The position numbers were made by a program, and so were the translations under genes. Below, in pieces: positions 515-64,000 of a DNA stretch of 64,000 nucleotides (positions within the stretch are counted from its first letter, which is position 1; the number at the start of each line of letters is the position of its first letter). The notes under the pieces are model-generated. The model had not been told where the DNA came from. It ran no database searches and saw only the letters and a list, made by a program, of their open reading frames with translations. Source of the stretch: Amoebophrya sp. A120 (taxonomy: Eukaryota > Protista > Dinoflagellata); the NCBI GenBank assembly GCA_905178155.1, contig CAJINV010000025.1, positions 164,453 to 228,452 on the forward strand, read 5' to 3'.

Positions 515-1061
515 AACTCGCCATTCACGTTCTACTCTGTTAAGCCGTCTGGTGGCTGGGCTCTTGAAATTTCCATACACGAAACCGTTTTTCTCACCGG
601 TGGCGCCTGTTTGAGCTGCCTGCAGATAGACGACCAAGGCCGCGTGGGTGTGGATTTTCTGAACTACCTATTAAAGTGAAAAATGCTCCCACCCCAGAAC
701 TTGGCAGCGTTTGCATTGCAAACTTTTCTAGTGGAAACATTCCCCGCCTTGCCTATATCAGCATCACAAATTTCCCATGCTGAATAGCTCAAAACTGTGT
801 TGCAAAGGAGCTCAACAGCAGGCGGATCTATTATGCAAAAGATACCTTGCGCGCGTAGATCTAGATTCTGCATCAGAAAGGCTCGCAGTCCTTTCTTGCA
901 AGACAAAAAGCTTTCATTTGGAAACTTTGCATGAGAAACTTTTGCAAGTTCTGGGGTAGGGGCATTTTTCATTGTAATACTACCAGCTTCTACCGCCAGA
1001 CCTCCGCACGGGCCACAAGGTCAGCGGTCTGCAGATGAGTCAGTGGGCGCCAACATGTTGA
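515..1061 (+). CDS. Probable 3' part of a hypothetical protein gene (two exons around introner 669-979)
   Basis: Removing 669-979 plus 5 nt joins ...DDQGRVGVDFLNY to QLLPPDLRTGHK...WAPTC*. 5' end unresolved, no recognised domain. Confidence 0.3.
669..979. mobile_element. Introner, family F
   Basis: TIR TATTA.A.TGAAAAATGC..C.ACCCCAGAACTTG; DR ctacc/ctacc. Confidence 0.9.
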
Positions 1062-1694
1062 GAGCCAACGGAAAGACGAACGGGTGTTGGTGATGTAGAT
1101 GCCGCATGTTGACGTCAAGAGTGGCGGTTCGGCGTGGTAGGCTCTCCACCTGAAATAAAATGTGAGAACGTAGAATAAAAATGTTGACATCGTTGTTTTT
1201 GACTACCAAACCTTACCCGAACAGGAACTGTGTTGCAAAATTTGCTTACTTCGGACGGTTCTCCAAAACGACGAAAGCACGGCACTGCGAAACGACTGTC
1301 GGGGGAGGATTCCTTGCTTTAAGAACTGGCACGACGCTATGTTGGCTGTTGCTCGTCGTGTTCGATCCCGCTGATACTTAAGTGTTCCGTCTCCGCCGTT
1401 GTAAAGTAGTTTAATCTGATGTAAGAGCAAGAAGAAGGAAGAAGGACGGCTAGCGTGCCAGGAGTCGTGCGAGTGAAACCTGGTTTGTTGTGTGGTATCA
1501 TCTTCAGCTTGATGCATCTCTTTGCCATGAGCGAGGGCGTAGTCTGCGTCAACGTGGGGTCGTCATCATCAAGCAGGCTGGACGCAGTTTCGTTTCCGTA
1601 GTGATGCTGAAACGAACACGAACTAGTTCTATACGTAGCGAAAAATCCGCAGCAAACTAGTACCTCTATTTTTGGTTGATTAATTCCTTCTAAT

Positions 1695-3944
1695 ATGGTC
1701 TCGTCTTGCGCTTGCCCCGCACCCGCGGCCGCCTTGCCAAGCGCAGAAGGTGCAAATCCTAATTCCGCTTCGGCATCATCCCGCTCGCCGCAACACGGCG
1801 GCAACAGCACGGCTTCCCTGTGCAACTCGACTCCGCAGCACGAGGACGCCTTTTCCCTCGAACTTGAAAACGAAAACCCGATCGAGAACTCGGCCCGCCC
1901 GCGGAAGCTTTCGGACAAGAAAAAAGCGTGCCTGGTCGAGGGAAACCAATTGCAGAAGTTTCTCGCGGACATTCTGACTGCGAAACAAGGCATATGACAG
2001 TGCACGACTCCCCCTCCTCCTCATTTGGCATGCAAAATGCCTGATTTATATTTACGCCTTGGCCCTTGGCACTCTTTGCATGGCAAGTTCTCGCAGCCCA
2101 AATAGCACTTCTACACTCGTGTTCAAATTTGTCATGCAAAACCTGTATTCTTGCTTACACTTGTATTGCTGTTCATGCAATACAAGTGAGGGGGAGGAGG
2201 AGTTGTGCGCTCTCATAAGGGAGGACCCCACCGCTGCACCGGCCCAACCAGACCGAGACGAAAAGCGCGATTGAGAAAATCCGGACAGCGTTTTTGGTTC
2301 CATCTGCCATGTTGAAGGCGGAAAAGGAAAACGAGATAAATAGCGTCATCTGCGCGGTGGACAATGCGAGCACGTCTTGTACGTCGACCAATCGCTCTAC
2401 AACAAGCGCGTCCTCTTCATCGGAAAACGAAGATGGTGGTCGTGCGAAGGATTCTTCTGCTTGCGGCTCTGCACCTCCTGCTAGATATACCGCCGCCCCG
2501 AGGACTCCCGCTGCAGCAGACTCAACATCTTCAGAGGAACTACAAGTGAAACATCAAAGGAGCGGCCTGCAGTCGCCGGAACAGCTGGCGCAGGTTTATG
2601 GAGAGCTTCCTTTCACGACCGGGGAGCAACTGTATGAGAGTGCACAACTACCCCCCTCCCCCTCATTCATTGTCATGCAGAACCGCAAATCCATTTGGTG
2701 CCCTTTGGCACTGTTTGCATGACAAATTTCGGAAGGCCAAACAGTACTACTTTCGGCCAGTGAACTTGTCATGCACAGGCCCCAGGAGTCCTGGCGTTTG
2801 TATTGCTGTTCATGCCATACAAGTGAGGGGGAGGGGGACTTGTGCACTGTCATAAACTGTTTGGCAGTTACTTCGCCTGTGAGGGTCTCCTCGGAAGCAT
2901 ATTCGCGGACGACGTTTTCTACGATGTCGGCTCTGGCTTTGGCAAAACGGTGCTGCAAGTCTACCTGACCACGCGCGTCCGCAAAGCGGTCGGGATTGAG
3001 CTCGGGGACACGCGACACGAGTTTTCAGTGCTGCTGAAGGACCGGCTGCTGCGTGAGTTGTTCTGTCCAACGAGCGACATCGAATTTAAACAGGGCAAGG
3101 TCGGAGATCACGTCTTGCCCACTGAATCCGGAAAGACCAATACAGCAACGATCCCTCCTGCTGCTTCTCTCCACCAGTTCGCATGCCGAGGCGTGTTTTT
3201 TCGCCACGAGAACATGTTCCACGCCCGGATGTCGGACGCCACCATTGTCTTCTTTTCCAGCTTGATGTTCAGCGATCCGGCCATCGAAAAAATGGCGGCA
3301 AAAATTTTGACCGAGTGTCCCAACTTGCGCTTTTTCGTGCTGCTGAGTGAGCTGCCATTGTCGCTGTGCGCGGCGGGCGTGGGACGGGATGATGCGGGTG
3401 AAAATAAAGCTGAGACCACGACGCGCTGCTTTCCGTATTGGGAAATGGTCAGCTCGCACAACCTATCAACTGCAAAAATGTCTGGGTCTGGAAGAACGCA
3501 AGATTTGTCATGCATACTTCTCATGACCCATGATGCCTGTAATGCATGGCCTAGCATCGCAGACTTTTAGAGGGCCTCCTGATGCACCTTCCGCATGAGA
3601 AATGCCCTGCCCGTGTGCCACAAATTGCACCCCTCTTGCTGGTCATGCAATACAATTTTTTTTAGAGTCCAAAAACAGCATGACAATCTTCCAGACCCAG
3701 ACATATTTGCAATTCATACGACCTAGCGATGGGCTGGTCGGACAAAACGCCAACGCATAGTAAACTAGGACTACAGCCAGTTTATGTGTACAGACCTGTG
3801 AACATAGCGAGGTACCCCGACAACTCGAAAGCTGCTGCTGAAGGCAGCGACAGGCAAAAATTCTTGCTACAACACCTCCAAGGCGACGAAAGCGACGCCA
3901 GCTATGATGCGGACGCTCCTGCTACGCCGAACCCGAATCTGTAG
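1695..3944 (+). CDS. DOT1-like class I SAM-dependent methyltransferase, about 510 aa. Exons 1695-1990, 2221-2632, 2860-3463, 3724-3944
   Basis: Joined frame reads VYGEL...DDVFYDVGSGFGKTVLQVYLTTRVRKAVGIEL...DATIVFFSSLMF...MGWS...PVYVY, the motif order of DOT1-like methyltransferases. Exon lengths sum to 1533 nt (511 codons). Confidence 0.8.
1993..2217. mobile_element. Introner, family B
   Basis: TIR TATGA.AGTGCACAACTCCCCCTCCCCCTCA; DR aggca/aggga. Confidence 0.9.
2633..2854. mobile_element. Introner, family B
   Basis: Family TIRs; DR aactg/aactg. Confidence 0.92.
3464..3718. mobile_element. Introner, family A
   Basis: TIR TATCAA.TGCAAAAATGTCTGGGTCTGGAA; DR caacc/cgacc. Confidence 0.9.
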
Positions 3945-8585: not shown

Positions 8586-11500
8586 ATGAGTGCCACGACG
8601 CAGAAGATGCCTTCGCTCCTCCGCTATTTCGTCCACCTCGCCGTGCGCAGCCTGCTGTACCACATGTTACGGCTTGTGCGAAAGGTCGCCGCCGCTACTG
8701 CTGCCACGATTTGTTTGCACCACGACTGGAGGACGGCACGACGAGGCTTCAGTTTGTTCAACTGGCCACTCGGCCCCGCGCTGCTCTTCGTGGGACGGTA
8801 CCGGCTGGCCGTGGCTTCACCAAATACGGGACAGGATCATGATGTTGAATCAGGAGCGGAAGCCACTCTGCTGGACGAGGATGTTCTTGGGGCCACTACC
8901 ACTGATGACGGCGACAACTTGCAGGAGCTGGATATCGTGACAAGGAGCCTTGCAGATGCGAGCGAAACGGATGATCAGTCATCCCCTGGTACTACTGCGG
9001 GGATAATAGCCCAACGACCATCTCTCCAAGCTACCAAGTGGTTTCTCGCGGAGTTTCCGGAGCACATGCAGTCGATTCGCAACATCCCGCTCCCGTGCGA
9101 GTACTTTGGGCACATGTACAGTTTCGAGGTCAGTTTCGCCCAGTTTCTCCGCGACAACAGCGAGCAATTTGTGGTTTCCGACCCGCTCCAAGCGGACTTC
9201 ATCCTCCTCCCCCACTGCATCACGATGGTGTACCACGCGCTGCGCTACCAGCTGGGGTTCAATACGAGGCGGAAAACCTGGGAGGCCCTGGACCTGTCGC
9301 AGCGGGTATCAAGATGAAAAATCCCCCCTCCCCATACTAAAACGGAGATTTGTGTAGCATGAGTTGCTACCGCAAATCATGTCGTCATGCTAGAAGGCCG
9401 AAGATGCGGACTGTAGTGCTGGAAGGCTTGGGAAAGCCTTGCATCTTCAGCATGACAGGAGGCAACTGGAAGTGGGGAACAGCATGACAAATGTGTGCCT
9501 GCAATTCAGCCCAAGACTGCGTCGCGTGGCCTTCTAGCAATACCAGCCGACTTGTGTACTCAAATACAGCATCACGCATTCCGTTTTCGATATGGGGAGG
9601 GGGGATTTTTCTTCACAATAGCGGGAGTACTTGATTCCCATCATCAACTGGGCGAAAGAGCAGGAGTGGTACAACACCTTCGATGCGGTGAGGAACACGA
9701 CGAACGGTTTGAAGTTCGTTATCCCTTTTGCCATGGACAAGGGCCGGGTCGACTACCCCATCGCGTCCAAAGCGAGCGCCGAGTGGCACGCCGTAACGAC
9801 GGTGGGGGATAAAAACTGGCTGCGGAGCGAAGCCGGGCAGAAACTGCTGTTTCTCAAGGCAGCTGCAGCTTCCACGACTTCTTCACGACGGCGCGTAGAC
9901 GAAGATTCCTTTCCCGGTGTTGAGCTCGCGTCACTGTCCGCCGATGAACAAGTGGATACCGTTGCATCTTCCCAAACCATTGAACACCCAGAGTTGCGGA
10001 AGGTAGTGGAGACCGAAACGACCGAAGTAGAACGTGGCAACATCAACGTCGACGATTCTGATCCGCTCGAAGAGGCGATTAAAACCAGCACCCAAACGGT
10101 CGAGAAGCTGCAGCAGAAACACGATGAAAAGTCGGAGGACTATTGGAACACAAACGAGTGGATCGACCCGGTTTTCCACTATCACGAAGAGAAAAAAATT
10201 TTGCGATTTCTGTTGCAAGAACGGAAGAGGAGAAGAGAGACTAAAGGAGTTGCCGTTCACCAGGACCACGTCGAGCCGCAGCAACTCCCCTTCGACCCTT
10301 GTTTTAACCAGACCTCGGTGTCGAAGCGGCCTTTCCTCTACTACGAGCAGGACGTTGTTGTCCCGGTGCCAACCGCGTTCTACTTCACGGAAGAAGCAAA
10401 GGCGACAGAAAATAGTATGCAGTGCAAAAGTCTCGTACTCGTACTAGTTGCGTTTTTATTCATTACAAATCTTTTGCTTAAGGCAAATCCGCATTACAAA
10501 TTTAATCTGTATTAATGCTAAGTCAATTTGTGATGCAATTTATACTAGTACGATGCTTTTGCAATGCATAAATAGAAGCCGGCTTCTCTTCCTCGCCGCC
10601 AGCGTGAACAGCTGCACACGACTATGAAAAGGAAAAATCCCCCCTCCCCATATCAAAAAGGAAATCTGTGATGCTGGATTTGCGTACACAAATCAGATTT
10701 GTATTGCAGGAAGGCACTGCGACCAGATCCCCAGGCTAGCTAGGGGCGTATGGGTCTAGTTGTTCAGCATTGCAAACGGCTGACCTTTAGGCCCAACAGC
10801 ATGCCAAATCGCTTTTCTATAATGCGGCGGAAGCGTCTGCGTTTGTCCTCTATGCAAGACAAATGCGATTTGTGACCTCAAATCAGCAACGCAAATTTTC
10901 GGAAAGATGCCTTTTCGATATAATGGGAGGGGGGATTTTTCCTCTCAATAACGACGGCTGGTGAAGGACGTTGCGAAGGTACTGTTTGAACAGGATTCCG
11001 ACGTCCTCGTCTTGGATAAAACGGTGGAGCGGCATGTTTGGCAGAACTACATGTACGAGACTAAGTACTGTCTGGTTCCTGACGGCTTCAGCTCGGTGTC
11101 CGCGCGATTGTACGAGGTGATTCTCCACGGCTGCGTCCCGGTTCTCGTCACCGACGCGTTCCACGGCGCGTTCGAAAATTCCCTCCCCTGGTATGAGAGT
11201 GCACAACTCCCCCTCCTCCTCATTTGTCATGCAAAATACCAAATCCAAGCGGTACTGCGTGGTACTGTTTGCATGACAGATTCCGGAAGCTGCCCAAGAA
11301 ACAGTACTACACGAACCGCATGAACTTGTCATGCTTAGGCTCCACAGGTGGGGGCGTCTGTACTCCTGTTCATGCAATACAAATGAGAACGAGGGGGACG
11401 AGTTGTGCACTGTTATACGTGGAAAGACTTCGCGGTCTTCATCAATCGGGTGGATCTGCCGTTTATCCTGTGCAAAAGTATCGCACTCGTATTGCAGTCA

Positions 11501-12801: not shown

Positions 12802-15800
12802 ATGAAGCAACCCGTAGACGCGGATTTCTACGACCCCGAGCAAATGGGAACCAGCAAGCGCCTATGCTTTGCAAACATGTCTGGGTCTCGAAGATTGATG
12901 CAAGATTTCTTCTTCTTGTCACGCTTGCCTCGCATGATTAAGTAAGATTATTCATTGCATAAAATTATAAAACACACGCTTCCACGACGCTACAGCCGTT
13001 CACCTATAGGCCCCCGATGCCCTATCGATAGGGCAACTTCGTATCGGAGGCATCAGCATGCAGGTCGGGCAAAGATGAAATTGAAAAAGTTGCGAGGGCT
13101 TCAGCAAAAAACTTGCGCGGAAGGAAATTTCTCTTCGCCGCGTGCTACGCTGAATAAATTTTGCCTATAGATAGGCCTCTGAGAGCCTATAGTGTATAGG
13201 TTGGCTGGGTTCGTTCACCATGCCATGCAGGATTCGATATTTTTCTCAAAGCTTGACTTTGAAAAAAAAAAATGCAATGAGTTCATGCAAAACGCAATCA
13301 CAGTGGTATAGCCGTTCACCTATAGGCCTCCGAGGGCCTATAGATAGGGCAATCTTGTATCGAAGGCATCAGCATGCAGGTCGGGCAAAGATGAAATTGA
13401 AAAAGTTTCGAGGGCCTCAGCAAAAAACTTGCGCGGAAGGCAAATTTTCTTCGCCGCGTGCTACGCTGAATAAATTTTGCCTATAGATAGGCCTCTGAGA
13501 GCCTATAGGTTGGCTGGGTTCGTTCACCATGCCATGCAGGATTCGATATTTTTCCCAAAGCTTGAGTTGGAAAGAAAAAAGTGCAATGAGTTCATACAAA
13601 ACGCAATCACGGTGGTATAGCCGTTCACCTATAGGCCTCCGAGGGCCTATAGATAGGGCAACTTCGTATCGGAGGCATCAGCCTGCAGGTCGGGCAAAGA
13701 AGAAATTGAAAAAGTTGCGGGGGCTTCAGCAAAAAACTTGCGCGGAAGGCAATTTTTCTTCCCCGCGTGCTACGCTGAATAAATTTTGCCTATAGATAGG
13801 CCTCTGAGAGCCTATAGGTTGGCTGGGTTTGTTCTCCATGCCATGCAGGATTCGATATTTTTCTCAAAGCTTGACTTGGAAAGAAAAAAACGCAGTGAGT
13901 TCATGCAAAACGCAATCACGGTGGTATAGCCGTTCACCTATAGGCCTCCGAGGACCTATAGATAGGGTCACGCGGAGTCGGGCGCGTCAAGATTTAGGTC
14001 GGGCGTAGACAAATGTGAAAAAGTGACGCACTCCACAAAAAAAAGCGCGCATGTAGGGCATTCTTTTTTCGGCGCATGTTGTGCTGGATATTTTTTGCCT
14101 ATAGAGATACCCTTGAGACCCTATAGGCTGGCTCGGTATGGTCTCCTGACCGTGCAGAAAGTGAAAGCAGTAGGAAAATAAAAAATTTTTGGAAGCAAAA
14201 ACCGTATATGCGTGTGCACGATGAAAAGGTCCTTTTTATGTTTGTCATGCAGTAACGCAGTCTGTCATGCAAAATGCGCAAGCAGAAGTAGCTACGCAAA
14301 TGCTTCTCATGCTTGGGTGTGCGTTACACAGGTTCCATCTCGCTTATTCACCACGACCAATCTTCGACCACGGCTAGTACTCCGGATCGCAATCGATGGA
14401 GGGCGGGACCTGCACCGGCGACAGGCGCTACCCAACCAACCAACCAATCAAATATACAAACTTCTAGACCCAGATGGAGATTTGAAATGCATAGCGGCAA
14501 GCGGAGCCCCCACCCGACCTGGGGTTCGTCAAGTACGTGCTGAATTTATGAACTGCAAAAGTATCGTACTCGTATAAATGCATTACAAATTTGCTAAATA
14601 AAATTTGTAATGCGGGTTTGCCTCAAGAAAAAGATTTGTAATGCAAGACTTGCATTCATACGAATACGATACTTTTGCACAGGATAGAATTTTTTCGTTC
14701 CGCCATTGCTTGTCTTCCTCATCATCGCGCTGCTGTGTAACGTATCAACTGCAAATATGATGTCTGGCGTTGGAAAGATCTAAGGTCTGCCATGCTTGGC
14801 TAACATGACACGCAAGTCTGTCATGCGTGTTACCCAAAAAGAAAAACTACCCCACTTTCCTGTCATGCAGAAGCTCGCTTTGTCATGCAAAATAAACAAC
14901 ACTGTAAGCACCGCCAAAACTTGTCATGTTGGGCATTCAATTGAAGAGTCCGCGTCTTTCTCAAGCAGCATCATAAGTTTCCAGACCCAGACACTTCTGC
15001 TTTTGATATAAGGAGTCCAGGTACATCAAGCCTGCGGGCACAATTACGGTGGTGTCGGTGATTGTGGGCGTCTTCGGCGCTGTCGTGTTGTACCTCTTCT
15101 TCGTCGCCAGAAAGCACTATATCCAACGAAAAAAGTGTTACAGTTACACATTTGTAGTGAATTCAGCAACACAAATTTCTCTGCATGAGAGAGAGAGAAC
15201 TTGTAATGCGGAAATCCTACGGCTACCGGAAAACATTTATGAAACGAGGCTCCTATGCATACTTATCCGGCATGACAGAGCTTGTCTGTCCTGCTTGGCC
15301 TGCAAGACAGTGTGTAACTGTATACACTTTTTTCTTGCGATACACTACGCCACGGTCATCGTCCTGTTCGCCGCACTGTTTTACGGCTGCTTTGTCGGGG
15401 AGGGCATGTAATATTATTGGAAGAAATTATGGATCGAGTTGATGTTTCTGTTTGTGGTTCTCCATGTCACTTTGATTTTTCATGCTTGTACTAAGAAGAA
15501 GAAAACTGGTTCCGAGGATAGAATACTGAATTGCTTGAAAAAAAAATCCAACCACCAGATTCAAACACGAGTTGCGGCCACTGTATGCGTATCCGATACA
15601 AAATGATTTAGGGTAATCTGGACCATCAACATCTGGGGATCGAATGTGACTTGTTTTATCAACTCGAACACTGTGATGTAGTTTCTCTTTCTGTTCTCGA
15701 GCACCAGCTGCAGACCGCATGCTCTGAGGTCAGTAGACCCTGGTACATTTTACTTCCCGTAGTTGCATACTCCGATGCGGGCGATGCGCGAGCGCACGGG

Positions 15801-18086
15801 GATCGACGTCAGCAATACGGATGCGAAGTCCCTGCAGGACGCGGGGATTGTTTATTTCAAGGAGGACACTTTCGTGGATGTGAACCGTGGAATGAGCTAC
15901 CGTATGAAACGGAACATGTTGCAAAAGCTTGTCATGTGGAGGTACTTATACCAGCATGGCATGACAGAAGTAACAGCAGAGCAGCCTGCATTCATAAGCA
16001 TTTGATTTCTACTCCAGGATCGCAGGATAGATCTTGTCATGTTTTCTATCCCTATGTATTTGTAACTCGTACAAGATGATTTTTGTGACATCGTGTATAC
16101 ACTAGTCCGATGACGTCTACTGTGTGGCGCCAATCTCCCTGAAGAACGCGAACATCGGAGTCTACCAGTACTTATGAGAGAAGTGCACAACCCCCCTCGT
16201 CCCCCTCATTTGTATAGCATGAACAGCAATACAAACACGACCACAAGTGGAGCCTCTGCATGACAAGTTTGTGTGCCTCATGTAGAAGTACTGTTTGGGC
16301 TCCTTCCGGAATCTGTCAGGCATAATAGTGATACAAGGATGCAACTGGATTTGGGATTTTGCATGAGAAATAAGAACGAGGGGGGGTTGTGCATTGTCAT
16401 AGTACTTCGCGGTGGGCGTGAATTGTTGCCGCACCGGCGACCCCAGTTTCGAGGGATGCGGTAATAATTATGACTCTGTTGGGCATTTTGCATGACCAAT
16501 GCTGTTGCGCTTGTGGAACGTGCATGACAAAGAACTACAACACAACTAACTACAACTCTGCAGTCGACGCCCCGACGAAGATATCAAATGCAAAAGTGTC
16601 TGGGTCTGGAAGGTCACAACTTGTGATGCTGTCTGTGGATTCTAAACAAAATTTGTATTGCATGACCCGCAAGAGGGGTCGGGTTTGTCCTAGGTGGAGA
16701 GGGCATTTCTCATGCGGTAGAGGTATCACAAACCCCTCTAAAAATCTGTGATGCTACGGCATGCATCACAGACATCATGGCTCATGGAAAATATGCATGA
16801 CAAATCTAGAAATCTTCCAGACCCAGACATTTTTGCATTTGATAGAAGACAGCCGGCAACGCGAGGCCAGTGAAAGCGGGCATGCGGGTGGTCTTTATCC
16901 AGGAAAAAAACTTTTTTTAGTGTACTAACGGTCTTCCAGTAGCAGCTTGACAAATTTCAATTTGCTCTGCATGTCAGAGAAACTCTCTCATGCATGGCTA
17001 GTACGTGAAAACCAAAAGCAAAACGCGTGTGAGAATGAGACTTCATTGCTGTCTGGCATGACAAGTGTAAGTTGTAAATGCGTCTTCTGCATGACAGATT
17101 TACACTATCACAGTTTTTTTCATGGGATAGCGTTCCCCGAGCAACTGCCGTACTACCGGCTCGCAGTGGAGCAAGCCGAGGCAGAGTACAACTTTCAAGC
17201 GAGTTATGCAAGAAAAAAACACCATCACAATCACGTTTAGCTGATTTTGCCTCACAAATTTGTGTCGCATGACAAACTTTTCTTGTATTGCAAAAACATG
17301 AAGGAAAGTCCCCCTCCCCTGTGTATATTAAACACAGGGGACTTTCCTTCATGTTTTTCTATAACTACAGTCAAGACTTATACTATAAGTCTTGACTGTG
17401 ATGCATTTTTGCGCATGACGTATTGCAAAAATGTGCAAAAGTGATTGCGATGGTGTTTTTTTCTTGCATACGAGTTCCGAGCAGCTGCTGTTTTTTCACT
17501 TCGTCAAGGACCCCGTCGCGGAAGTGCTCAACTTCGAGCAGTATTAACTGCAAAAGCATCGTACTAACTAGTAGTGATTGCAATTATAGTACAAATTAGG
17601 TTAGCATGACATATCGAATTTGTCATGCTGATCGCGCTTGGGAAGGAGATTTGTCGTGCATAATTGCGATTACACCGAGTGCGATATTACTTTTGCACTG
17701 CATAAGCAGCGCGGCCTGGTCGACCGGGTGCGGGCAAACACGATGTTCTCCCTAGCGAACTTTCTGCTCGCGCTATCCTGTGTAAAAAGGTTCCCACCCC
17801 AGAGTTGTCATGCAGATTTGCGATCACAGGAACATTTGTCATGCGCATCCCCAAGGGAGGCACGTCCAATCGTGTTTTCGCATTTGTAATGCTGCAAACA
17901 GGATAAGCGGATGGATTTAAGATGCGCTTGTCCTTGCCAACATGCACTACACTACGGACTGCAACTTGTCATGCGTAGCTCCCAAAACTTCTGGACTTGT
18001 GTTGCTAAGTTCCCAACTTGACTATGGGGTGGGGACGTTTTTACATATGATGCGCGCCGTTCCTGACCTGGGCGATAACGTCGTAA
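12802..18086 (+). CDS. Conserved alveolate-type multi-pass membrane protein with a Cys-rich luminal domain, about 14 exons
   Basis: Joined exons read MKQPVDADFYDPEQMGTSKR/QAEPPPDLGFVKYVLN/FFVPPLLVF...DAGIVYF...DDVYCVAPI...QY/FAVGVNCC...AGMRVVF/PEQLPYYRLAVEQAEAEY...LLFFHFVKDP...TWAITS*. Junctions near 15405-15763 and 15903-16105 are not fully resolved. One GT-AG intron at 16461-16563. Confidence 0.7.
12863..14493. mobile_element. Giant introner, family A, carrying a satellite array
   Basis: Degenerate family-A TIRs 1631 bp apart; DR gcgcc/gcggc; removal joins exons in frame. Confidence 0.8.
12975..14130. repeat. Tandem satellite, about 309-bp unit, about 3.7 copies, inside introner 12863-14493
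   Basis: AGCCGTTCACCTATAGG recurs at about 12995, 13310, 13619 and 13928. Near-identical ORFs at 13220 and 13529 are offset by 309. Confidence 0.92.
14547..14686. mobile_element. Introner, family C
   Basis: Family TIRs; DR gaatt/gaatt. Confidence 0.92.
14743..15008. mobile_element. Introner, family A
   Basis: Family TIRs; DR taacg/taagg. Confidence 0.88.
15120..15342. mobile_element. Introner, family G
   Basis: TIR TATC....GAAAAAAGTGTTACAGTTACACA; DR cacta/cacta. Confidence 0.92.
16173..16401. mobile_element. Introner, family B
   Basis: Family TIRs; DR gtact/gtact. Confidence 0.92.
16582..16844. mobile_element. Introner, family A
   Basis: Near-perfect 30-bp TIR; DR gaaga/gaaga. Confidence 0.94.
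16896..17129. mobile_element. Introner, family G-like
   Basis: TATCCAGGAAAAAAAC...GTTTTTTTCATGGGATA; DR gtctt/gcgtt. Confidence 0.8.
17205..17470. mobile_element. Introner, family H
   Basis: TIR TATGCAAGAAAAAAACACCATC.CAATCAC; DR cgagt/cgagt. Confidence 0.92.
17542..17704. mobile_element. Introner, family C variant
   Basis: Family TIRs; DR agcag/agcag. Confidence 0.9.
17774..18052. mobile_element. Introner, family D
   Basis: Family TIRs (3' end ATG); DR cgcgc/cgcgc. Confidence 0.9.
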
Positions 18087-29114: not shown

Positions 29115-29923
29115 TATGTAGTGAGGTCACGAACGTTCTAATCTAGCGGTTTTTTTGACAGGCAGTGCGCAAAATGACCGGCAGTTTTCAATCGGCCGGA
29201 GGCGTTTTTTGACATAAAAAGTTTCTAATTATCAATCGGCCGGGGCTTTGCCAACAAACAAGCCCGGGCGGATTCTATCGGTTCCCGATTGATAAAACGA
29301 CGCAAGGGGGCCGGCAAAAGGGGCGCCCTTCTGAGGCGCCCGGCGCATCTGTTGCCGCCGATTTGGGGCGCCCAAAAAGGGGCGCCAAGAAAATGCAAAG
29401 ACGACAAAAACCCTGAATCCGCATGGTATGGGCCGTATTTTGGCCCACTTTTGGAGGTCGGAAAGCCGGCCACCAAAAGCGGGCGTTTGTAATGCGGAGA
29501 GCAGGGCAAAAAGTGCGACTTTCAACAAAAAAAATACGAAAATGCAAAGGCCGCCAAAATCTGTGAGCTGACCCGCATGCTACGGGCCCGATTTGGGGCG
29601 CCCAAGGGGCCGGCCCCGGCGGAGGCCCTTGGGGGGCCATAGCATGCGGGAAAGCGTTTCGATTCAGGAGGCGGCAGGGGCGCGGCTTTTCAACAAAAAA
29701 AGCCAAAGGACGCAAATCCCGCCAAAAGCAGCATGCCAACCCGCATGCTATGGGCCCGATTTGGGGGGCCCACAGGGCCGACCCTGGCGGAGGCCCTTGT
29801 GGGGCCATAGCATGCGGGAGAGCGTCTCTCCTCTGAAAAGAGCGAAAAGACCCGGCTTCGTCCAGTCAAAAAGACCCCGCGTGACCTCACTACCCCCGCC
29901 TCCCTCGGCGGCTATATTTGGTA
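29115..29923 (+). mobile_element. Non-autonomous Helentron/Helitron2-like element, copy 1
   Basis: 5' TATGTAGTGAGGTCAC, subterminal inverted GTGACCTCACTAC, then CCGCC..GGCGG hairpin and CTATATTTGGTA. Homologous to 41091-41822. Confidence 0.7.
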
Positions 29924-30196
29924 TTGAGCGGTCAAGTAGGACGCGCTCGCGGAGGCCAGCACAGTTGTTCCATCTTCAAATCGTCGTTCCTGAAAGAACA
30001 GCAACCTCGTCGTGCGACAGCAACACCTCTGTGAGTTACTTACTATAAACTTTAACTTTTTTGGAAGATACTACCGACACACCAAACTCCAACCCACCTT
30101 CTGTTCAACAGAATAGCTGCTGAACATCAAGAGAATTTGAATTGCTTCAAGAAGTACAACTAAGACTAACTAGCGTGCCCTTCTTTATTCTTGTGT

Positions 30197-42861: not shown

Positions 42862-45800
42862 ATGGTGATTCTGCACGTGAAGAAGGGTGAGGCAAAAAAC
42901 GAGTTTCTGCAGGATGTTCTCACCTTACGAGAGAGCACAACTCCCCCTTCCCCTCATTTTTATGTTGGTATGAACAGCAATACAACCACCAGCACACGTA
43001 GGGCCTTCGCACAACAAGTTCGCGTGCCTACTAGCGTAGTACTGTTCGGGCTTCCAGAATCTGTCATGCAAATAGTGCCACAAGGTGGCTGCACATGGAT
43101 TTGGGATTTTGCATTACACATGACGGCGAGGGGGAGTTGTGGACTCTCATACACCTCCGAAACCGTTGACCAAGTCCTGAAAAAAACCGTGGAGCTGCAC
43201 AACATTCGGCTGTATCAAATGCAAATATGTCTGGGTCTGGAACAAGGATGTAGCTTGTAATGCCGCATTTGGATTCTAAAAATATCTGTATTGCAGGAGC
43301 AGCAGAAGAGGTGCATTTTTTGCTACACGGAGGGGGTATTTGTCGTGCAGTATGGCGGGCATCACAAAGCCGTCACAATAGCTGTGATGCTAGTACATGC
43401 ATCACAGACATCGCCGGTGATGCAAAATGTGCATGACAAACTCCCAGACCCAGACATATTTGCAGTTTATAGGCTGAAAGTCTTGCGACTCGCTGTCTCT
43501 TATTCATTGCAAAATTTCTGTCGTACTAATTTCTGTAGAAGTGAGTCATGGCAAATCATATGACATGGTCTGGTTTCAAGTTCACGCAGTTTGTCATGCT
43601 GATCTCGCTTTGGGATTTGCATTTGTCATTTCATTACTGAAATTAGTACGGTAGAAGTTTTGCACCGGATGCGTCTCTGCGCGAATTGGGGAAGCACGGA
43701 CCCCTCCGGCCCGAAGAAACCAGGGGACTGATATCAAATGCAAATATGTCTGGGTCTGGGAGATTGCGAGATTTGTCATGCTAATCTGGCATGACTCTGA
43801 ACTCTGTATTGTGTGCCGCGAAGAGCTCCTCTTCCCTGTCATGCAAGAAAACAGTTTCTCATGCGGAATACGCAGCTCAGAACCACGAAAAAAACTTGTC
43901 ATGCTTGGCAGCGCATTACAGTGAGCTCACTATAATTTTTTCCTTCCTTGCATCACAAGTTTCCAGACCCAGACACAAGTATTTGCATTCGATAACTGAG
44001 CGAAGACACCAACTTTCCGCTCGACGTGAATGCGTATGGCACACCAACCAATCCAGATGAGCACGGGTACAACTTCATACGAATTTAAGTAGATTTATTT
44101 GTCATGCAAGCAGCAAAGGTTTTTTCTTTCTTTTGCCGCTGCTGTGATCAGTATTTTCGATCTATTTTTCCACTTGGTGTTTCAGTTTCTGATCTGTATC
44201 TGATCCCACCTACAGGTTCCGCACCGGTTGCCCGCCACCTGGCGAGGTAGGCGAAGTGCTGATTCGCACCGCGAATGAGTCCGAGCAGGCCGTTGCCCAC
44301 ACCCTGGTACAGCAACGAAAGAATCTTACAAAAGAGATTTGCGAGGAGTGTCTGGCCCAGATGCGATATCGTACGTAGAAGTAGCGATATCATGTACGAC
44401 TACTACTCAAGATCAAGTACAAGTGGCTGGTGTACTAGAAAATCCGAAATGTGGCAAGTGAATTAATTTCCTTGCGCTGTCAACATACTCATGCCGTGTA
44501 GTGTCTATGACGTCGCTTTATTTCATGATGTCGCTTTTTCCTACTATATCCCCGGCGCGGTCATGATCGCTTACCCGGCGTTCCACAAGCTACCGTTCTT
44601 CGATTATGGAAGTGAGCTGGAGTGAAGTTTGTCATCAGGCGGTATTTCGCATGAGAAACCTGGTTTCTGATAATTCAAAACTCGCATGACAAAGTTCTTA
44701 TTCGATTTCAGCTCCATATCATCCCCGTGCGGTTGGAACTGGAAGACAAGGAAGAATTGGATGGACAGTACTTCTAATATTACAAGGTTTGATCATTTGA
44801 TTTGTCATGTGTCTTGTGCATGATGAGGAGGTCTTGTCATGCGGCCGTGCTATGTAAGGATACGTGAACGTGAGTGGTATATTTTTCTTTCTTCCTAATG
44901 CTAAATCCGCATCACAGGTCCGAGCTTCAAGACGTCCTGGACATTCCGCAGGCAACGATGTGGTTCGCTGGGAAGGAACTATCCTTTGCAAAGCTATCGT
45001 ACTCCTGGTACAAATTCATCTTGCAGCCGCGCATTACAAATCTCAATCTCAACATAAATCCGCATCACAAATTTACATTTCTGATGCTGAAGAAATTTGT
45101 CATGCGGTTCTTGCACTAGAGGTACGATATTGCTTTTGCAATGCATAGGAACTCGTGGTCGGCAAGCTCCTCTCCGACTACGTGGGCAAGTATCCTCAGC
45201 AAAAGCATCGTAGCGGTGGTAGTTGCAAGACTGCATGACAGATCTCGTATCTATAGATGAATCAGCAACAGAAATTTCCTTTCTGCTTTCGAACGAGATT
45301 GTCATGCAATTTATCAATCCCACGGTCGTGCTTTTGCAATGCATAGCCGGAACGAAAAAACCAAGATCGTGATCAAACTGCAGACCAAGGCTGCGTACCA
45401 AATGCAAAAATGTTTGGGTCTGGAATAAAAGGTGGAGCCTGTATTGCGTTGCTTGCATGGTTGCAAAATCTGTATTGCGCCAGCGCCACGACTAAAAACG
45501 AAAAGCGCGGTGACCTTTTTTTGTCATGAGAAAATGTAGCGCATCACCTTCACAATCACAAGCCTTCAAGTTGTATTCAGCGGACCCAGATCGATATTTG
45601 CGATGCATACTTCGGGCGCCCCGGTGCGCGAGCCGAGGGTGGACGAAAACACGCACAAGGCCATGCTGAGCTACTACTACAAGAAGCAAGAGTATGGGGG
45701 TGTCAGAATCGAAATCGACAAAGTTGAATATTTATAATCAGTCATGCATAAAATGCGACGCAAAAAGTGACTCTATTGCAGAGGACGCTAGGGAGGCAGA

Positions 45801-47997
45801 TTGTAGTCCTGCTAAGGTTCAAGAATTGGGGTGGTGACTAGCATGACAGATGCGAGCTTTTTTGCCCTGAACAGCACGACAAACTGGCTTCCGATACCGG
45901 CAAAATTTGTCATGCGCCGCCTAGAAACTGTGGGTCCAACTGGTATGGATTTTCTACATTACAAGTTGAAGTTTTTCAGCTTTGTCGATTTCGATCCTGA
46001 CGCTCCCATAGAGAGGAGGCGAAAAGACTAGCGGAAGACGAGGACGACAGTTACCTGGAAAGCAACTGGGCGGTATTGTTCGGAAAAATCTCCCCTCCCC
46101 GTATCGAAAAGGAAATTTGTGATGCTGGATTTGCGTACACAGATCGCCTTGCATTGCTAAAAGGCCAAGAACAAACGCAGTCGTGACCTGAATTGCAGGC
46201 GATTTGTCATGCTGTTTCCCACTTCGAGTCGCCTCGTGTCATGCGGAAGATGAAAGGCTTTCCCACGCCTGCCAGAACTACAGTCCGCATCATCTCCTGC
46301 CTTCCAGCATGACAACATGAGTTGCGGTAGCAAATCATGCTACACAAATCTTTTTTCCGTAGCCATTTTGGCTCAAGTTTTTTTTTCCGCGAAGGGAAGA
46401 AGTACTTGCAGTACAGATTCGCTGCACTCGTCCGGGGAGCGACGTGTGCTGCGGTTTCGATCTCTATCCTTGCCCTCGGTCGCCTCCCTTCGCCCCCCGA
46501 AGGAGAGGTTCACTTGGTAGAAATCTAACCCTGATGCCTTACACCTCCCGCCGCTAGGATGGACGATTTAGTCCTCGTCTACGATAAAGACACCCCCGAG
46601 GCGGGGCAGTTCGCGCTGAACCTGTACGACCACGCGAAAAAATGGATCGGGTTTTCGGTGCAGGAGCCGAAGCCGACCGAGCGCACCTCGTTCACGGTGA
46701 ACGGCGCCAGCATGGGGATCATCATCACCAAAGACGTGTTCAAGTCGGAGTTCGTCACGGACGCGCTGGAGCTGATGGTGGCGGCCAAGAAGCCCTGCCT
46801 GCTGATCCACCACATCGCGGGCAAGACCAACGTGGAGGACGAGATCATGCAGTGCGAGAACGACGACTACCTGCGGTACATCCGCAAGGCGCAGACCTGC
46901 ATCTACACCTTTGACCTGGCGGACCAGTGCCAGGACCACATGATCACGCTGCTGGAGTTCAAGTCCGCGGACAGCAAGAAGGAGCTCCAGAAGCAGGCCG
47001 TCCTCCGGCTCGAGGAGACCCGGGCGGACGTGCTCTTGTTTTCCTCGCGCGTCGCCAAGGGCCGGCTGAACGCCGCGGTGCACAGGAGGTACGACTTCTG
47101 CCTCACCTGCGCGGTGGAGGACCCCCCGGTGGCCGAGGACGTGCTGAATAAGGTCTACGACATCATGAGCCGGTACGCGCCGGCGCTGCAGGTCGCGCGC
47201 AACCAGGGCGACAAGGCGGTCACCAACGTGCAGCAGCGCACCGCGAACATCCGCGACTCCTTCAACCTGGTCGTCTTCGCCACGAGGAATTGCTTCGCCA
47301 CCGACGAGAACGGGAAGGGCAGCGCGGTGGTCGAGGAGGTGAAGGCCGCGCTGGAATCCGAGCTGCAGGTGTGCATCATCCAGCACCTGTCCCAGTGTCC
47401 GGACATCGACGCGGAGATCGAGATATCGAATGCAAAAATGTGTGGGTCTGGAAGAGCCAAACTTGTGATGCTGCATTTGGATGCTAAAAAGACCTGTATT
47501 GCATGACAAGCAAGAGGATTCAAATTTGGCTACGCGGAGAGGGCATTTGTCATGCTGGAAGCGCATAGATAAGCGCTCAGAAAATCTGTGATGCTGTGGC
47601 ATACATCACAGACAGCATGGATCATGGAGAATTTGCATGGTGACGAAGCAGACGACAAGCGCGGGAATGGTACAAATCAAAAAAAAAAATGGCATAAACG
47701 TGCTCTGCTTAACTGTGTGAAAGGTGTCGGCCCTGTGTAACCTGCTGCGGCAGGCAGGTGAATTCGTAGAACTGCATCACATGTTAGGCAACATCCACCG
47801 GCCTCCTAGCTCAGTGATGAATTTATATGCGTAAACAGAGCGGGGCCCAATGAAAAAAAAAAAAAAAAACATGCTACACAAATCTCCGTTTCAGTATGGG
47901 GAGGGGGGAGTTTTCATTTTGATTGGCGGACAGCAAGGCTTTGAAGAAGCACCTGGTTGGCGGCGGGCGGCCGATCGGGTTCCGGGGGCTGAACTAG
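42862..47997 (+). CDS. CFAP298: Cilia- and flagella-associated protein 298 (C21orf59/Kurly/FBB18), 286 aa, 14 exons
   Basis: Exons 42862-42925, 43157-43212, 43477-43500, 43677-43731, 44000-44066, 44216-44366, 44554-44604, 44724-44767, 44918-44979, 45153-45190, 45351-45395, 45615-45692, 46016-46073, 47930-47997 total 861 nt. They read MVILHVKKG...RLKVLRL...KHGPLRPE...RGAVMIAYP...WFAGKEL...LSDYVGKNEKTKI...GAPVREP...DDSYLESNWADSKALKKH, matching CFAP298 family motifs. Confidence 0.93.
42926..43151. mobile_element. Introner, family B
   Basis: Family TIRs; DR cacct/cacct. Confidence 0.92.
43213..43471. mobile_element. Introner, family A
   Basis: Family TIRs; DR ggctg/ggctg. Confidence 0.92.
43501..43671. 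mobile_element. Introner, family C variant
   Basis: TIR TGCAAAA.TTCT..CGTACTAATTTC; DR tctct/cgtct. Confidence 0.85.
43732..43994. mobile_element. Introner, family A
   Basis: Family TIRs; DR actga/actga. Confidence 0.92.
44367..44548. mobile_element. Introner, family J (degenerate)
   Basis: AGCGATATCATG/CATGATGTCGCT inverted pair; DR decayed; element+5 removal gives conserved MRGAVMI. Confidence 0.78.
44605..44718. mobile_element. Short introner (114 bp)
   Basis: TATGGA...TCCATA ends; DR tcgat/tcatc; removal gives FDPVRLE. Confidence 0.78.
44980..45147. mobile_element. Introner, family C
   Basis: Family TIRs; DR ggaac/ggaac. Confidence 0.92.
45191..45345. mobile_element. Introner, family C variant
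   Basis: DR gcaag/gccgg; removal gives YVGKNEKTK. Confidence 0.85.
45396..45609. mobile_element. Introner, family A (degenerate)
   Basis: Family TIRs; DR ctgcg/cttcg. Confidence 0.87.
45693..46010. mobile_element. Introner, family K
   Basis: TIR TATGGG.G.GTCAG.ATCGAAATCGACAAAG; DR aagag/gagag. Confidence 0.9.
46356..46377 (+). other. Dinoflagellate spliced leader (DinoSL) relic
   Basis: TCCGTAGCCATTTTGGCTCAAG is an exact 22-nt match to DCCGTAGCCATTTTGGCTCAAG. It is followed by a UTR and CDS rather than the GT-starting SL-RNA intron. Confidence 0.95.
46559..47423 (+). pseudogene. 3'-truncated retrocopy CDS encoding two tandem TIR-like (Toll/IL-1R) domains, nested in the last CFAP298 intron
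   Basis: Intron-free 865-nt GC3-rich ORF downstream of a spliced leader. Second repeat YDFCLTC...IRDSFNLVVFATRNCF...VVEEVKAALESELQVCIIQH resembles TIR_2. Runs into a half introner at 47424. Confidence 0.65.
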
Positions 47998-49511: not shown

Positions 49512-51501
49512 ATGTACGGTCTCCACAAAGTGAACCACATGTACACCGCCTCGGGTACGGGCAAGGACTTTGTCGTGCAGGACCCTTACTTATGAATTGC
49601 AAAAATGTCTGGGTCTGGAAGATTGCAACTTGTGCTGCTGTCTTTCGATTCCAAAAAAGTCTGTATTGCATGACCAGCAAAAGGAGTCCAGTTTGTGCTA
49701 CGCGGAGAGGGCATTTCTCATCCGGAACACGCACCAGAGAGCCCTCTCAAAATCTGTGATGCTAGGCCATGCATTACAGGCATCATGTGTCATGCAAAAT
49801 CTGCATGACAAACACAAACCTGGCACTCTTCCAGACCCAGACATATTTGCGTTTGATATTACTTCAAAGGCGGGAAGATCGGTTTCGAGAAGATGGCGCA
49901 GCACCAGGGCGCATATGCACTGCAAAAGTATCGTACTCGTACTAAAAATCGCAGTCATGCATTACAAATTTCTTTCTCAAGTCAAACCCCCATTACACAT
50001 TTCATTTCTCATGCTGAGGAAATTTGTCATGCGCTTTCTATTAGTACGATCTGCTTTTGCATTTCATAGCGCCAAGGGCACCGCGATGATCCCCGAACCC
50101 ATTAACCGGCACAAGTACCAGGCCTTCCCGATGGGCTTCGGGTCCGTATGCAAGAAAAAAACTGTATAAGTGTAAGGCTGTGATGCAGAAAATGCCAAAC
50201 AGTTACACTTGTCAAGCTGGACATGCGTCAGAGGCTCTTTTCGTACGTGTTTTCACATACTGGCCGCGCATGACAGGCTCTCCCTGTCATGCAGAGCAAA
50301 CTTGTGATGCTATTCCCCCAAGAAAGTTACACTAACACAGTTTTTTTCTTGGATAGTTCGTCGGCGTGCCCGAATACAAACTGAACCTGAGCCTCGCCCG
50401 CAGCAAAGCGCGCTTGGAACTCTCGAAGAAGGACAACGACCGGATTAAGGAGGCCGGACAGCGGGCTCTGAACGGCGCGACGTCGCACTTGTCCCGATCC
50501 GTATGCATTGCAGAAGTACTATCGCAGTTGTAGTAGCGGTTGCAGCAATACAAATAGCTCAGCATGACAAATGGGATATATTGTCGTGCTGGTTTACAAC
50601 TTTGTTGGGAAGGAGATTTGTCATGCATAGTTGCGATTACCGACTTGAGCTTGACTACGATTGCGATAGTACTTTTGCAATGCATAATCCGTGTCCGCGG
50701 ACAACTTGCGGGTGCCGTTCTCGAAGACGACGGGATTGGTGGAGCAAGGGTATGATGCGTAGCTGCATGAGAAATTGTGACTATGACGCGTAGCTGCATG
50801 GCAAATTATGATTTTGACGCGTAGCTGCATGACAAATTACTTGTACTGGTTCAGCATCGCAAGAATTTTTTGGGCAACAGGCTCTGCGAAGATTACGAGC
50901 TGCTGGAGCTGCGCATGATCCACGTTCATTCTGAAAAAATACACAAAATTTAGTAAAACGAGAAAAACATAACAGCCTGAGAGCTGCAAATACAATGCAT
51001 GCCCAGCATGAGAGCTGCAAATACTTTGCATAATGCGCATCACAAATTTAGATTTAAGTACACTAAAAAAACATAACAGCCCCTGCCATCCGAGGCCGAT
51101 CGTGAAGGAGGCGCCGAGCATTTTCGACAGCGTCACGAAGTCGGGCATGGTATGCACTGCAAACACGTCTGGGTCTGGAAGGATGCGAGCTTTGTCATGC
51201 ACATTTTGCATGACCGATGGTGTCTGTGATGCATGCCCAAGCATCACAGATTTGTTGAGGGCGTCGTCATGCACATATCGCATGAGAAACGCCCTCGCCA
51301 CGCAGCAAAAACTGGACTCCCCTTGCTGCTCATGCAATACAGATTTTTTTAAGATCCAAAGGTAGCATTACATACAAGCTGCATTCTTTCAGACCCAGAC
51401 AGATTTGCATTTGATACATGGTCTGGGAAATCGGTGACGCCAAGAAGTACGGGTTCAACGGGTACTCGCGGACCGGCTACGGGGGCTTGTGGAAGCGTTA
51501 A
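49512..51501 (+). CDS. Hypothetical basic protein, 183 aa, 7 exons (possibly axonemal)
   Basis: Exons 49512-49590, 49864-49913, 50074-50146, 50361-50501, 50692-50749, 51080-51150, 51422-51501 total 552 nt, reading MYGLHKVNHMYTASGTGKDF...YSRTGYGGLWKR*. The function is a guess. Confidence 0.7.
49591..49858. mobile_element. Introner, family A
   Basis: Family TIRs; DR ttact/ttact. Confidence 0.92.
49914..50068. mobile_element. Introner, family C
   Basis: Family TIRs; DR gcgca/gcgcc. Confidence 0.9.
50147..50355. mobile_element. Introner, family G-like
   Basis: TIR TAT.CAAGAAAAAAACTGT; DR gtccg/gttcg. Confidence 0.88.
50502..50686. mobile_element. Introner, family C variant
   Basis: TIR TATGCATTGCA.AAGTACTATCGCA; DR atccg/atccg. 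Confidence 0.92.
51151..51416. mobile_element. Introner, family A
   Basis: Family TIRs; DR catgg/catgg. Confidence 0.92.
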
Positions 51502-52912: not shown

Positions 52913-52971
52913 CCTGGTTGCTTTCCGCTGGACTGTCGTGGTACTTCGATTCCATCTATCCGAACAGAATC

Positions 52972-61370: not shown

Positions 61371-61459
61371 GAAAAACTTTTGCGCAGTAAATAAGTACAC
61401 ACTTCTGCGAAGAGAAATAAGCGAAGGCGCCCGGACTTTTTCTCCTGCGGAAGATGATA

Positions 61460-62066
61460 AAGTGCAAGACTACAACGACGCCCGCTTCTCACAGTGACAA
61501 TCACAAATTTTTGCACAGCCCGACGCTGGTGGCGCGGTCCACTACGTATGGGCGAACTCCTGCAAACCTCTGTATGCGTGACGTATGAATCTAGTTCGAG
61601 TGACTTTCTGTTTCTAGCCCGAAGACAAATGGTCGGAAACGCAGCCCAGTTGTGTCTTTGTGTGCCGCTGGAGATAGGGATGCTGACTGATGTAAGTTTA
61701 CGCCAGTTTTCTCCTTTTTTTTTCGACATATAAAAAACGCGACGTGGTTACTACTCCAGTCGCACTCGTAAAATTCTTTTTTGAGAATGCAAGCCGTAGC
61801 TGGTTTGCTCTTTCTGATACCACGTCGAGTTTCGTCGCGAAGCACCGTAAAGCATCCTGATGAGATTCTTCTTATGTGCAGTAAAAAAGATATTAAGCTA
61901 CACTGCGAAGCGAATGCGAAACACTAAGCCCTGACTTCTTATTCTGTGGAAAGTAAAATGCAAGACTGCAACGACATAGACGTGCGCTCGCAGTGACTAT
62001 CACAAATTTTTGCACAACTCGACGCTGGTTGCGCGGTCTACTACTCATGGGCGAACTCCTGCAACC
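61460..62066. repeat. Diverged ~105-bp direct repeat pair
   Basis: TGCAAGACT.CAACGAC...ATCACAAATTTTTGCACA..CGACGCTGGT...ATGGGCGAACTCCTGCAA at about 61462 and 61959. Confidence 0.8.
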
Positions 62067-62837
62067 GCTATGAGTGGTTATGAGTTAAGTATCGAGTTCC
62101 CGCCGTGGGCCTTGGCCTTCTTCGCATCAAGGTTGTGTGTTCCGTAAGAATGAAAAAAGTCAGTTGTTCTTTCATCTCAAGAAATTCCCAGATAGTGTTG
62201 TTGAAGCTGTTGACTGAGCCTGCGAACTTATCAACACTCTTATTGCAAGGAAAAATTTTCCCTCCTCAACCTCATGTTGAAAACGTAAACGTATGCGTCT
62301 GAAAATTTGTGATGGAGATTTCGACGAATCAAACGTCTTCTTTTGAATAAAGTCTAGGTGTGATTGAAGAAGAGCAGCTTCTTCACGGAGAGAGAAGATC
62401 AAGATGAAAATTTTCACGATTTGGTTTTGTCCTCCATGTGTCGGGAGCACCACAGCGGTGGGCGATAGAACGTTATTGTCGTCCTGTGTTCCTGTTCCGG
62501 CCTGAATCTGAGTTACTCTTCTGTTACGCATTGTATGTTATGCAAATTCACTGCAACGCAGTTACAACCAGAGAAGCACGACAACGAACCAGGAAAAATT
62601 GACACGAGAAGGAATTTTGGTTGGTCAGCGATGCACATCAAGAACATTTCCGGTGTCGTGTTTTTTGTCAATGCTACCAAAAGTGGAAAAGCTGCGTTTT
62701 CGGTGGCAGAAAGCCTAATATTTCGCTCAGCTTCCGCCAGCACAAGAACCGTATACAGATAAATGGATGCTTGAAAATCAAAATCAGTGGACTGTAGGTG
62801 ATCACGACCATGATATCGAGGAACGCATAGATAAAAG

Positions 62838-64000
62838 ATGGATCTCAATGCGGAAGCGGTTCGCTGGTTGGCTGCCACCACCTCCGGCAGTGATGGTGGA
62901 ACGAGAAACAGTAATTATGGTGCGCCAACGACAGCTGCAAATAAAAGAGCATCTGCTGAAATGAATTCCACGCGTCGCGACAGCACGACAACGCTGTTAA
63001 ACAACAACCCCCTTCCCGCTTTTCAGCTGCTGCACCGCGCGTTGAAGCAAGGCATTGTGTACGCATTGCAAATTAATAAGTATGCCGAAGTCTGGAGTAG
63101 ACAAAAATCTGTGTTGCATGGACGGAAAAAGTTGCCTAGCACTTCTAGTAACGCAGAGGGCGAATTTCTCATGCGGAATAGGCACTAAGGCGCTCTTGCG
63201 CAATCTGTGATGCTTGTGGTCGCATTACAAACCAACTTTGTTTTCCACGAGATGCATTGCATTCTTCCAGACCGAGACATTATTTGTTTTTGATATCGTG
63301 GAGAAAGACCTGTTTTTGTTAGCGGAGACCTGGGCGAACCTCGGGCTGGCGTATCGCAAGTTGCAGCAGCACGAGATATACCCAGTGCAAAAGTCTCGTA
63401 CTCCGACGTAGTCGTACTCGTACAAATTACAGTGATGGAGGAGCACGACAAATTTCTCTTCCTGACGAGCTAAATCAAGAACGTGACAATTTTTGAACTT
63501 CCATTGATTTGTAAATGCAATTCCATTTGATGTAATGCTAATGTTGAGAAAATTTGTAGTGTACTATGCAGTTGGTACTCGCTGCACGATAGTACTTTTG
63601 CATTGCATAGTGTGTTGCAGAATGTTTCCGAGTTCGGCACCTCCTCTCCCGTCCACGACCAGCAACAGCTGCAGGATTTATCCACTGCAAAAGTGTGTGG
63701 GTCTGGAAACTTGTGATGCAAGTCAGGGAAAAATGCGTATACTGGAATGCACTGCCAAGCATGACAAGTTTTTCCGTGGTTCAGAGTTGCGTACTCCGCA
63801 TGAGAAACTGCGTTTTTGCATGACAGGGAAGAGAAGCCCTTTGCGGTCACGCAATACTGAGCTCACAGTCATGCCGGACTAGCATGACAAATCCCGGAAT
63901 CTTGGAGACCCAGACATTTTTGCATTTGATAGGATTTGGCCATTTACAATCTGCAGCTTTCCGCCAGCCTGCTCAGACGGGTTTTGGACCACGACAACGA
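62838..64000 (+). CDS. 5' part of a protein with a TPR-like helix pair; runs off the window
   Basis: MDLNAEAV...KQGIV/EKDLFLLAETWANLGLAYRKLQQHEI joined across introners 63060, ~63378 and 63679. Confidence 0.5.
63060..63295. mobile_element. Introner, family A (degenerate)
   Basis: DR ttgtg/tcgtg; frame kept. Confidence 0.8.
63379..63609. mobile_element. Introner, family C variant (left end 63377 or 63379)
   Basis: TGCAAAAGT.TCGT inverted pair; DR decayed. Confidence 0.75.
63679..63931. mobile_element. Introner, family A
   Basis: Family TIRs; DR ggatt/ggatt. Confidence 0.92.

Follow-up and report, generated by a model that had tools for sequence, protein, structure and literature searches.

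The introners of the dinoflagellate Amoebophrya sp. A120 are described, in the portion of PMC7789003 available to us, as elements bounded by an inverted repeat of TAT, seven variable bases and at least AAA, with a 3–5 nt direct repeat at their boundaries and with non-canonical splicing, and the same portion reports U1 snRNA to be missing in both A25 and A120 and leaves the mode of movement and of splicing open (no A120 transposase, no U1). We analyzed a 64,000-nt stretch of A120 contig CAJINV010000025.1 (positions 164,453 to 228,452; hereafter the window, numbered from its first letter), in which nearly all introners carry a short internal motif. The main feature of this motif, missed in a preliminary description of the same DNA, is its arrangement in polar same-direction pairs 31–32 bp apart.

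By their ends, the elements of the window match the published A120 introners, and the likeness (Farhat 2021 PMC7789003; Gozashti 2025 PMC12130899) extends, in the parts of these papers covered, to the short direct repeats, the RNA-supported non-canonical splicing and the lengths. The published text in those parts concerns the ends only, and no internal motif, 31–32 bp pair or splice register was seen in it, figures S14–S25 lying outside this scope. Lemi1 leaves footprints on the subterminal repeats of the Emigrant miniature inverted-repeat transposable elements (PMC1636448, which in the part covered also cites Sleeping Beauty, pogo, CACTA and hAT), and the A120 introners resemble these non-autonomous elements in that a short motif recurs, in either orientation, inside each of the two ends. 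They differ in that their motif is common to eight or more terminal-repeat classes, occupies the whole interior, keeps a three-turn spacing and echoes the terminal repeat only weakly. In supplement 8 of PMC12130899, as far as covered, A120 family 38 is listed as Ginger with a 5-bp target site duplication and TA/TA termini. The Ginger/TDD integrase-type transposons (PMC2836005, in part) likewise have terminal inverted repeats, with 5-bp duplications in TDD-4/5; because Ginger ends read TGTNR and those of the window read TAT, the introners do not fall within Ginger. Most Ginger elements make 4-bp duplications, and no coding element was found among the introners. The non-conventional introns of euglenids (PMC11282704) are also transposon-like and have paired ends that align non-canonical junctions in a set register, although their end sequences are different and no common internal motif is described in the part of that paper covered.

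Thus, the elements themselves and subterminal repeats as a kind are known already, and what appears to be new is that one three-turn pair is shared by every class, together with a fixed splice register. Neither the internal motif nor its spacing was mentioned in the literature searched, which included the available portions of PMC9860276, PMC11282704, PMC13326754 and PMC12005148, with figures, theses and subscription papers outside its scope, and none of the string matches listed in one literature search concerned introners by title.

The internal motif and its paired spacing

The carriers are 78 curated introners lying between 669 and 63931, most of them 110–340 bp long, which start with TAT and end with ATA; their ends pair, and a 5-bp target duplication flanks the majority. 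A wider sample was obtained from 127 loci of one other assembly that were fetched with a class A pattern, and class A is over-represented in it; after overlap trimming, it comprised 640,761 bases and 523 elements, and the automatic finder recovers 65 of the 78 curated elements of the window. The families have in common the inverted repeat TAT-N7-AAA, in which AAA is the minimum. Of the 465 elements with a strong repeat, 366 have a duplication of exactly 5 nt, other lengths (3, 4 and 6–9 nt) occurring at most 12 times. By their terminal repeats, they were grouped into eight classes and an unclassed rest, with terminal positions 14–30 differing between classes. Since this end and the 5-bp duplication are shared, the families, whose terminal repeats and interiors the preliminary description called otherwise unalignable, are not unrelated and constitute one superfamily.

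The strict form of the motif, [TC]TGTNATGC, occurs 105 times on the plus strand and 114 times on the minus strand of the window (219 copies), and its variable base N is C, G or A and almost never T. The consensus is (T/C)TGTV(A/T)TGC, and the iterated matrix version is (T/C)(T/C)T(G/c)TV(A/t)TGC; matrix counts in these elements are partly circular, the matrix having been trained on them, and strict counts are not. The 78 curated elements (22,570 bases) hold 203 of the 219 strict copies (9.0/kb), compared with 16 in the other 41,430 bases (0.39/kb), of which, by reading of the sequence, decayed elements account for 9, the three GT-AG introns cited in the preliminary description for 4 and another repeat for 1, with the remaining 2 elsewhere. 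Counting no further than 400 nt into each element gives 195 strict copies, against a mean of 3.3 and a maximum of 6 in 30 dinucleotide shuffles. Both orientations were found in 48 of the 78 elements and at least one strict copy in 74. The motif first observed is thus real, with the correction that decayed introns which are still spliced can lack it. The rarity in exons that had been judged by eye was borne out, with no strict copy in the 3,314 exon bases of the window that are supported by RNA, support here meaning contigs from runs presumed to be RNA (two samples of one study), from which only the best-supported splice joints were used and runs X11 (partial, 90–95% likeness) and X5 (14 records) were left out.

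The enrichment was replicated in the other assembly, where strict copies numbered 11.4/kb inside the 523 elements and 0.74/kb outside. A matrix match was present in 602 of 606 elements. Repeats and inserts of other kinds, namely a satellite, a nested open reading frame and eight that are nested inserts or non-TAT repeats, gave 2 strong matches in 8,039 bases. An exception to the rule is the TAT...ATA element at L051:13016-13888, which is 873 bp long and has a 5-bp duplication but no strong match. Genic and intergenic copies could not be compared, the non-coding class being so narrowly defined that it took in 6 of 3,000 random positions and 1 element. In viral contigs, four patterns gave 2, 0, 4 and 0 stretches, and the six loci, with 1–2 strict motifs each, were taken as chance. 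The motif may also resemble Sox-Oct, ApiAP2 TGCATGCA and Rbfox UGCAUG sites.

A same-direction pair 31–33 bp apart was found in 472 of 606 elements, compared with about 94 expected from random placement, and the modal same-direction spacing was 31 or 32 bp in all nine groups (the eight classes and the unclassed elements), whereas opposed copies peaked at 15–17 bp apart. The intervening sequence is scarcely alike between classes, with an identity of 0.28–0.39 against 0.27 for shuffled spacers and 0.44–0.77 within a class. The pairs are also polar: at the A/T position, A exceeds T by 695:58 in the upstream copy and by 484:270 in the downstream copy, a polarity not shown by classes D, F and G. 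Whether the pairs face inward or outward depends on the class. The spacing corresponds to three turns of B-DNA (3 × 10.5 bp, or 31.5 bp). The position of sites relative to the element end is suggestive, and only that, of helical phasing, the best period for 34 inward sites being 10.5 (R 0.51) with the pair spacing built in, and the first sites alone selecting no period. At 50751–50860, there are three tandem 31-nt units with one motif copy each, and such units are a possible route by which a 31-bp pair arises.

The motif was confirmed at all seven intervals for which it had been claimed, of which four are introners. The class A introner at 16582–16844 (plus strand) holds five copies, TTGTATTGC counted in, with inward pairs at cores 16621/16653 (+) and 16763/16795 (−), each 32 bp apart, and it is spliced in the RNA contigs. 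The class B introner at 9307–9620 (plus) has two copies, with pair cores at 9450/9482 (32 bp, minus-strand reading), and the class F introner at 14547–14686 (plus), which is spliced, has three, namely an outward pair at 14605/14636 (31 bp) and an opposed copy at 14580. An introner with a rare terminal repeat at 45693–46010 (plus), also spliced, has two copies and a matrix-defined pair 33 bp apart. The other three intervals are GT-AG introns on the plus strand with one, one and two strict copies, respectively, all of whose joints are present in RNA contigs: 16461–16563, with a 32-bp pair (~16490, ~16522) in antisense reading; 44067–44215, with one consensus copy at 44099; and 44768–44917, with a 32-bp pair (~44802, ~44834) in sense reading and its terminal repeat gone. 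The first of these is followed by a micro-exon of ~18 nt (16564–16581 in RNA contigs) that separates it from the class A introner. A class C introner at 17774–18052 (plus), which is spliced, has five same-direction copies in pairs 31 bp apart and belongs to a family found in both gene orientations.

Conservation of the motif and its possible readings

In 12 family alignments, the difference from the family consensus was 4.4% at the invariant motif columns, 10% in the terminal repeats, 23.6% in the flanks and 26% at the variable base, a comparison that flatters the motif because its sites were defined by matches. Thus, neither equal frequency outside the elements nor decay at the rate of the neighboring bases was found, and the idea of a family-independent cis code stands insofar as the element is conserved and shared, "family-independent" being an overstatement for a single superfamily. 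Between nearest neighbors, the invariant columns differed by 3.5–8.5% while the flanks went from 7.9% to 24.8%; the TAT ends differed by 1–4%, the AAA core by 3–6% and the target duplications by 4.5% per site. These rates indicate that the motif persists along lineages, yet that resident copies decay at about the rate expected after insertion, faster than the splice-critical ends. A functionless inheritance of the pairs from one ancestral element would be in keeping with the one superfamily, with a between-class spacer identity slightly over that of shuffled spacers and with per-copy length changes that occur also in the 31–33 bp spacers (9.5%). It is largely refuted by the difference between invariant columns and flanks, and the spacing is kept though spacers, positions and orientations differ between classes, which makes this explanation very improbable.

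The preliminary description had also supposed that the two-strand symmetry of the motif would let elements work in either orientation and pair internally, of which the former holds with respect to transcription and the latter lacks support. If opposed copies, which lie 15–17 nt apart, were kept because they base-pair and extend an intron hairpin, the predicted paired fraction of motif bases (0.62–0.76, against 0.54–0.66 for flanks, in the eight groups with a value) would be accounted for. The variable base, however, does not covary between opposed copies (observed/expected 0.93–1.13), which leaves internal pairing unsupported, the predicted motif–motif pairing in class C is only 0.14, and the dominant unit is a same-direction pair, whose copies cannot base-pair; we consider this explanation extremely improbable.

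The fixed 31–32 bp spacing and the indifference to the direction of transcription favor binding to DNA, which was one branch of the original proposal. We therefore lean, at slightly better than even probability, to the reading that a putative mobilizing protein, shared by the classes, uses the pairs as subterminal binding sites on double-stranded DNA, and a repeated conserved motif at set distances inside both element ends is indeed present. The putative binder could be a shared integrase-type transposase or its cofactor, two units of which would occupy the same face of the helix at a distance of three turns and help to bring the element ends together. Selection would then fall mainly on those copies that later transpose, and resident copies would therefore decay and leave relic motifs in GT-AG introns. 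If so, the spaced site common to all classes could be used as bait for the mobilizing protein and as a signature for an autonomous element.

Several observations weigh against such docking sites. No transposase was found among the 87 long open reading frames scanned (of 90, from ~0.64 Mb) or in three long elements of the loci, and the available part of PMC7789003 reports none for A120. The motif echoes the terminal repeat weakly, the highest score, itself low, falling on terminal position 8 and only in class A, class F and the elements without a class, and in the closest pairs of elements, the invariant columns still change at 0.44 of the flank rate. Classes that differ at terminal positions 14–30 usually have different transposases. 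From the introns, a strong copy was present in all five RNA-supported GT-AG introns without terminal repeats, and a first set of 41 repeat-less GT-AG introns (4 RNA-supported, the rest predicted) contained 22 sense copies and 2 antisense copies. Among 403 elements oriented by a self-trained codon model, the terminal inward copy was better kept when 5'-proximal (0.146 vs. 0.281 mismatches, p ~0.004 in a post hoc subgroup), and elements with one orientation only leaned to the sense strand (34 vs. 19). The codon model probably errs in places, for example near 1–2,600, and its errors would dilute any strand asymmetry.

A sense-strand RNA word, UUUGUCAUGC, serving as an intronic splicing enhancer for an RNA-binding protein that stands in for U1 snRNA, and present in both orientations so that either insertion is spliced, would explain the 22:2 ratio and the 5'-proximal copies, and would suit the strand-symmetric interior substitutions and the absence of a detected U1 (PMC7789003, in part). 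The sense bias was, however, not replicated in a second, noisier set of 59 GT-AG introns (26 sense vs. 23 antisense copies), element-like introns having been set aside beforehand in both sets (7 and 13, respectively), although motif enrichment over shuffles held in both. Moreover, the strand-conservation test on all sites gave p 0.08 and the terminal test was picked after the data had been seen; 23 of the 403 oriented elements have no sense copy, 2 of 31 RNA-supported introns have no motif, and a single-stranded reader would leave unexplained a spacing fixed at 31–32 bp over unrelated spacers. With neutral relics also explaining the GT-AG copies, the other branch of the original proposal, an intron-defining RNA signal, is weakly favored at best, and we judge the enhancer distinctly unlikely as the main function; the weak sense-strand bias leaves room for a secondary role in splicing. 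The families lie in both directions about equally, and that of class C, in which all six consensus sites point one way, is forward in 17 of 32 oriented copies.

The GT-AG introns bear also on the possibility that a host DNA-binding or chromatin protein recognizes the paired site and marks introns during transcription, marked introner copies being spliced or tolerated. Among 86 predicted GT-AG introns, 30 have a strong copy, 56 have none, and 7, all repeat-less, keep a strong pair 31–33 bp apart. When neutral decay was simulated to a divergence of 0.25–0.35, 33–58% of the relics passing the filter for absent terminal repeats had a strong copy and 0–2% a strong pair, with strong pairs reaching 14–15% at 0.15. 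In this model, a mix of relic ages can give the motif level of the GT-AG introns, with the pair count at the high side; these introns therefore do not prove host selection, for which their pairs had been a candidate proof that the simulation removed. A host protein would share the geometry and strand indifference of the docking sites, and it would suit a motif common to different terminal repeats where no transposase was found. The introns without a strong copy (56 of 86 predicted and 3 of 31 RNA-supported) and the decay of resident copies near a neutral clock, together with the relic mix, stand against it, and we regard it as unlikely. Rather unlikely is a reading that joins the two roles, in which the paired site on double-stranded DNA, with its three-turn spacing, is bound by one host protein, perhaps a domesticated transposase, that marks the intron as it is transcribed and takes the place of U1 recognition, the site thus licensing both movement and splicing. 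Apparent minus-strand GT-AG introns at 1136–1216 and 1607–1663 are motif-free by eye; most other genes of the window are on the plus strand.

Splice register of the introners

The RNA contigs skip the elements precisely. Of 31 joints, 25 could not be read as GT-AG, and 28 fit one register, in which the intron starts 1 nt before TAT and stops 4 nt after ATA (window joints 14541–46068), the three off register being GT-AG introns. Three non-canonical joints are placed unambiguously, and all are in this register: those of the intron at 44366–44552 (plus), which has no motif match; of a decayed introner at 15902–16103 (plus), which has two weak copies only; and of a short introner at 44604–44722 (plus). 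A further TAT...ATA intron without a match, at 15589–15773 (plus), is spliced in RNA contigs, so that 2 of the 31 RNA-supported introns lack any match and 3 lack a strong one.

The end bases of the 403 oriented elements differ in their constraint: the first T is kept in 402 at the 5' end, compared with 393 at the 3' end, whereas for the third base the 3' end is the stricter one (402, vs. 390 at the 5' end). This would fit an invariant U at intron position +2 and an invariant A at −7, the latter being a candidate branch point very near the 3' junction. The paired ends and the fixed register are thus the likely basis of splicing, which the motif would enhance weakly if at all, and the register (U at +2, A at −7) provides a testable rule for junctions said to have no clear signature. 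A branch-point role of the motif itself was rejected, its orientation and distance to the 3' splice site varying by class and direction of insertion; CTRAY occurs near the 3' end in only 10 of the 86 GT-AG introns.

A 1.85-kb composite element at 46074–47924 is skipped as one intron of a CFAP298 gene (joint in RNA contigs; Pfam PF11069 at 45615–45692). It contains an open reading frame of 288 aa (46559–47422), possibly a captured gene, which resembles TIR-domain proteins in the Atlas (0.93, to be taken as no more than a lead) and has no Pfam match; Pfam likewise gave nothing in six long open reading frames of the window.

Other repeats and insertions in the elements

A class A-like element at 12863–14493 is enlarged to 1.6 kb by a satellite of ~310 bp without the motif. 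A repeat of another kind, which has a hairpin at its 3' end and inverted repeats in subterminal position, occurs at 29115–29930 and 41098–41820, with a relative at L035:6173-6714; one copy is nested in the introner at 40827–41986, and we take the repeat, from its anatomy, to be Helentron/DINE-like. Across all element families, private insertions of 3 nt (117) and 6 nt (38) far outnumber deletions of those sizes (3 and 2, respectively) and are usually imperfect duplications. They are possibly excision footprints, in which case 3-nt insertions would add single residues in exons.

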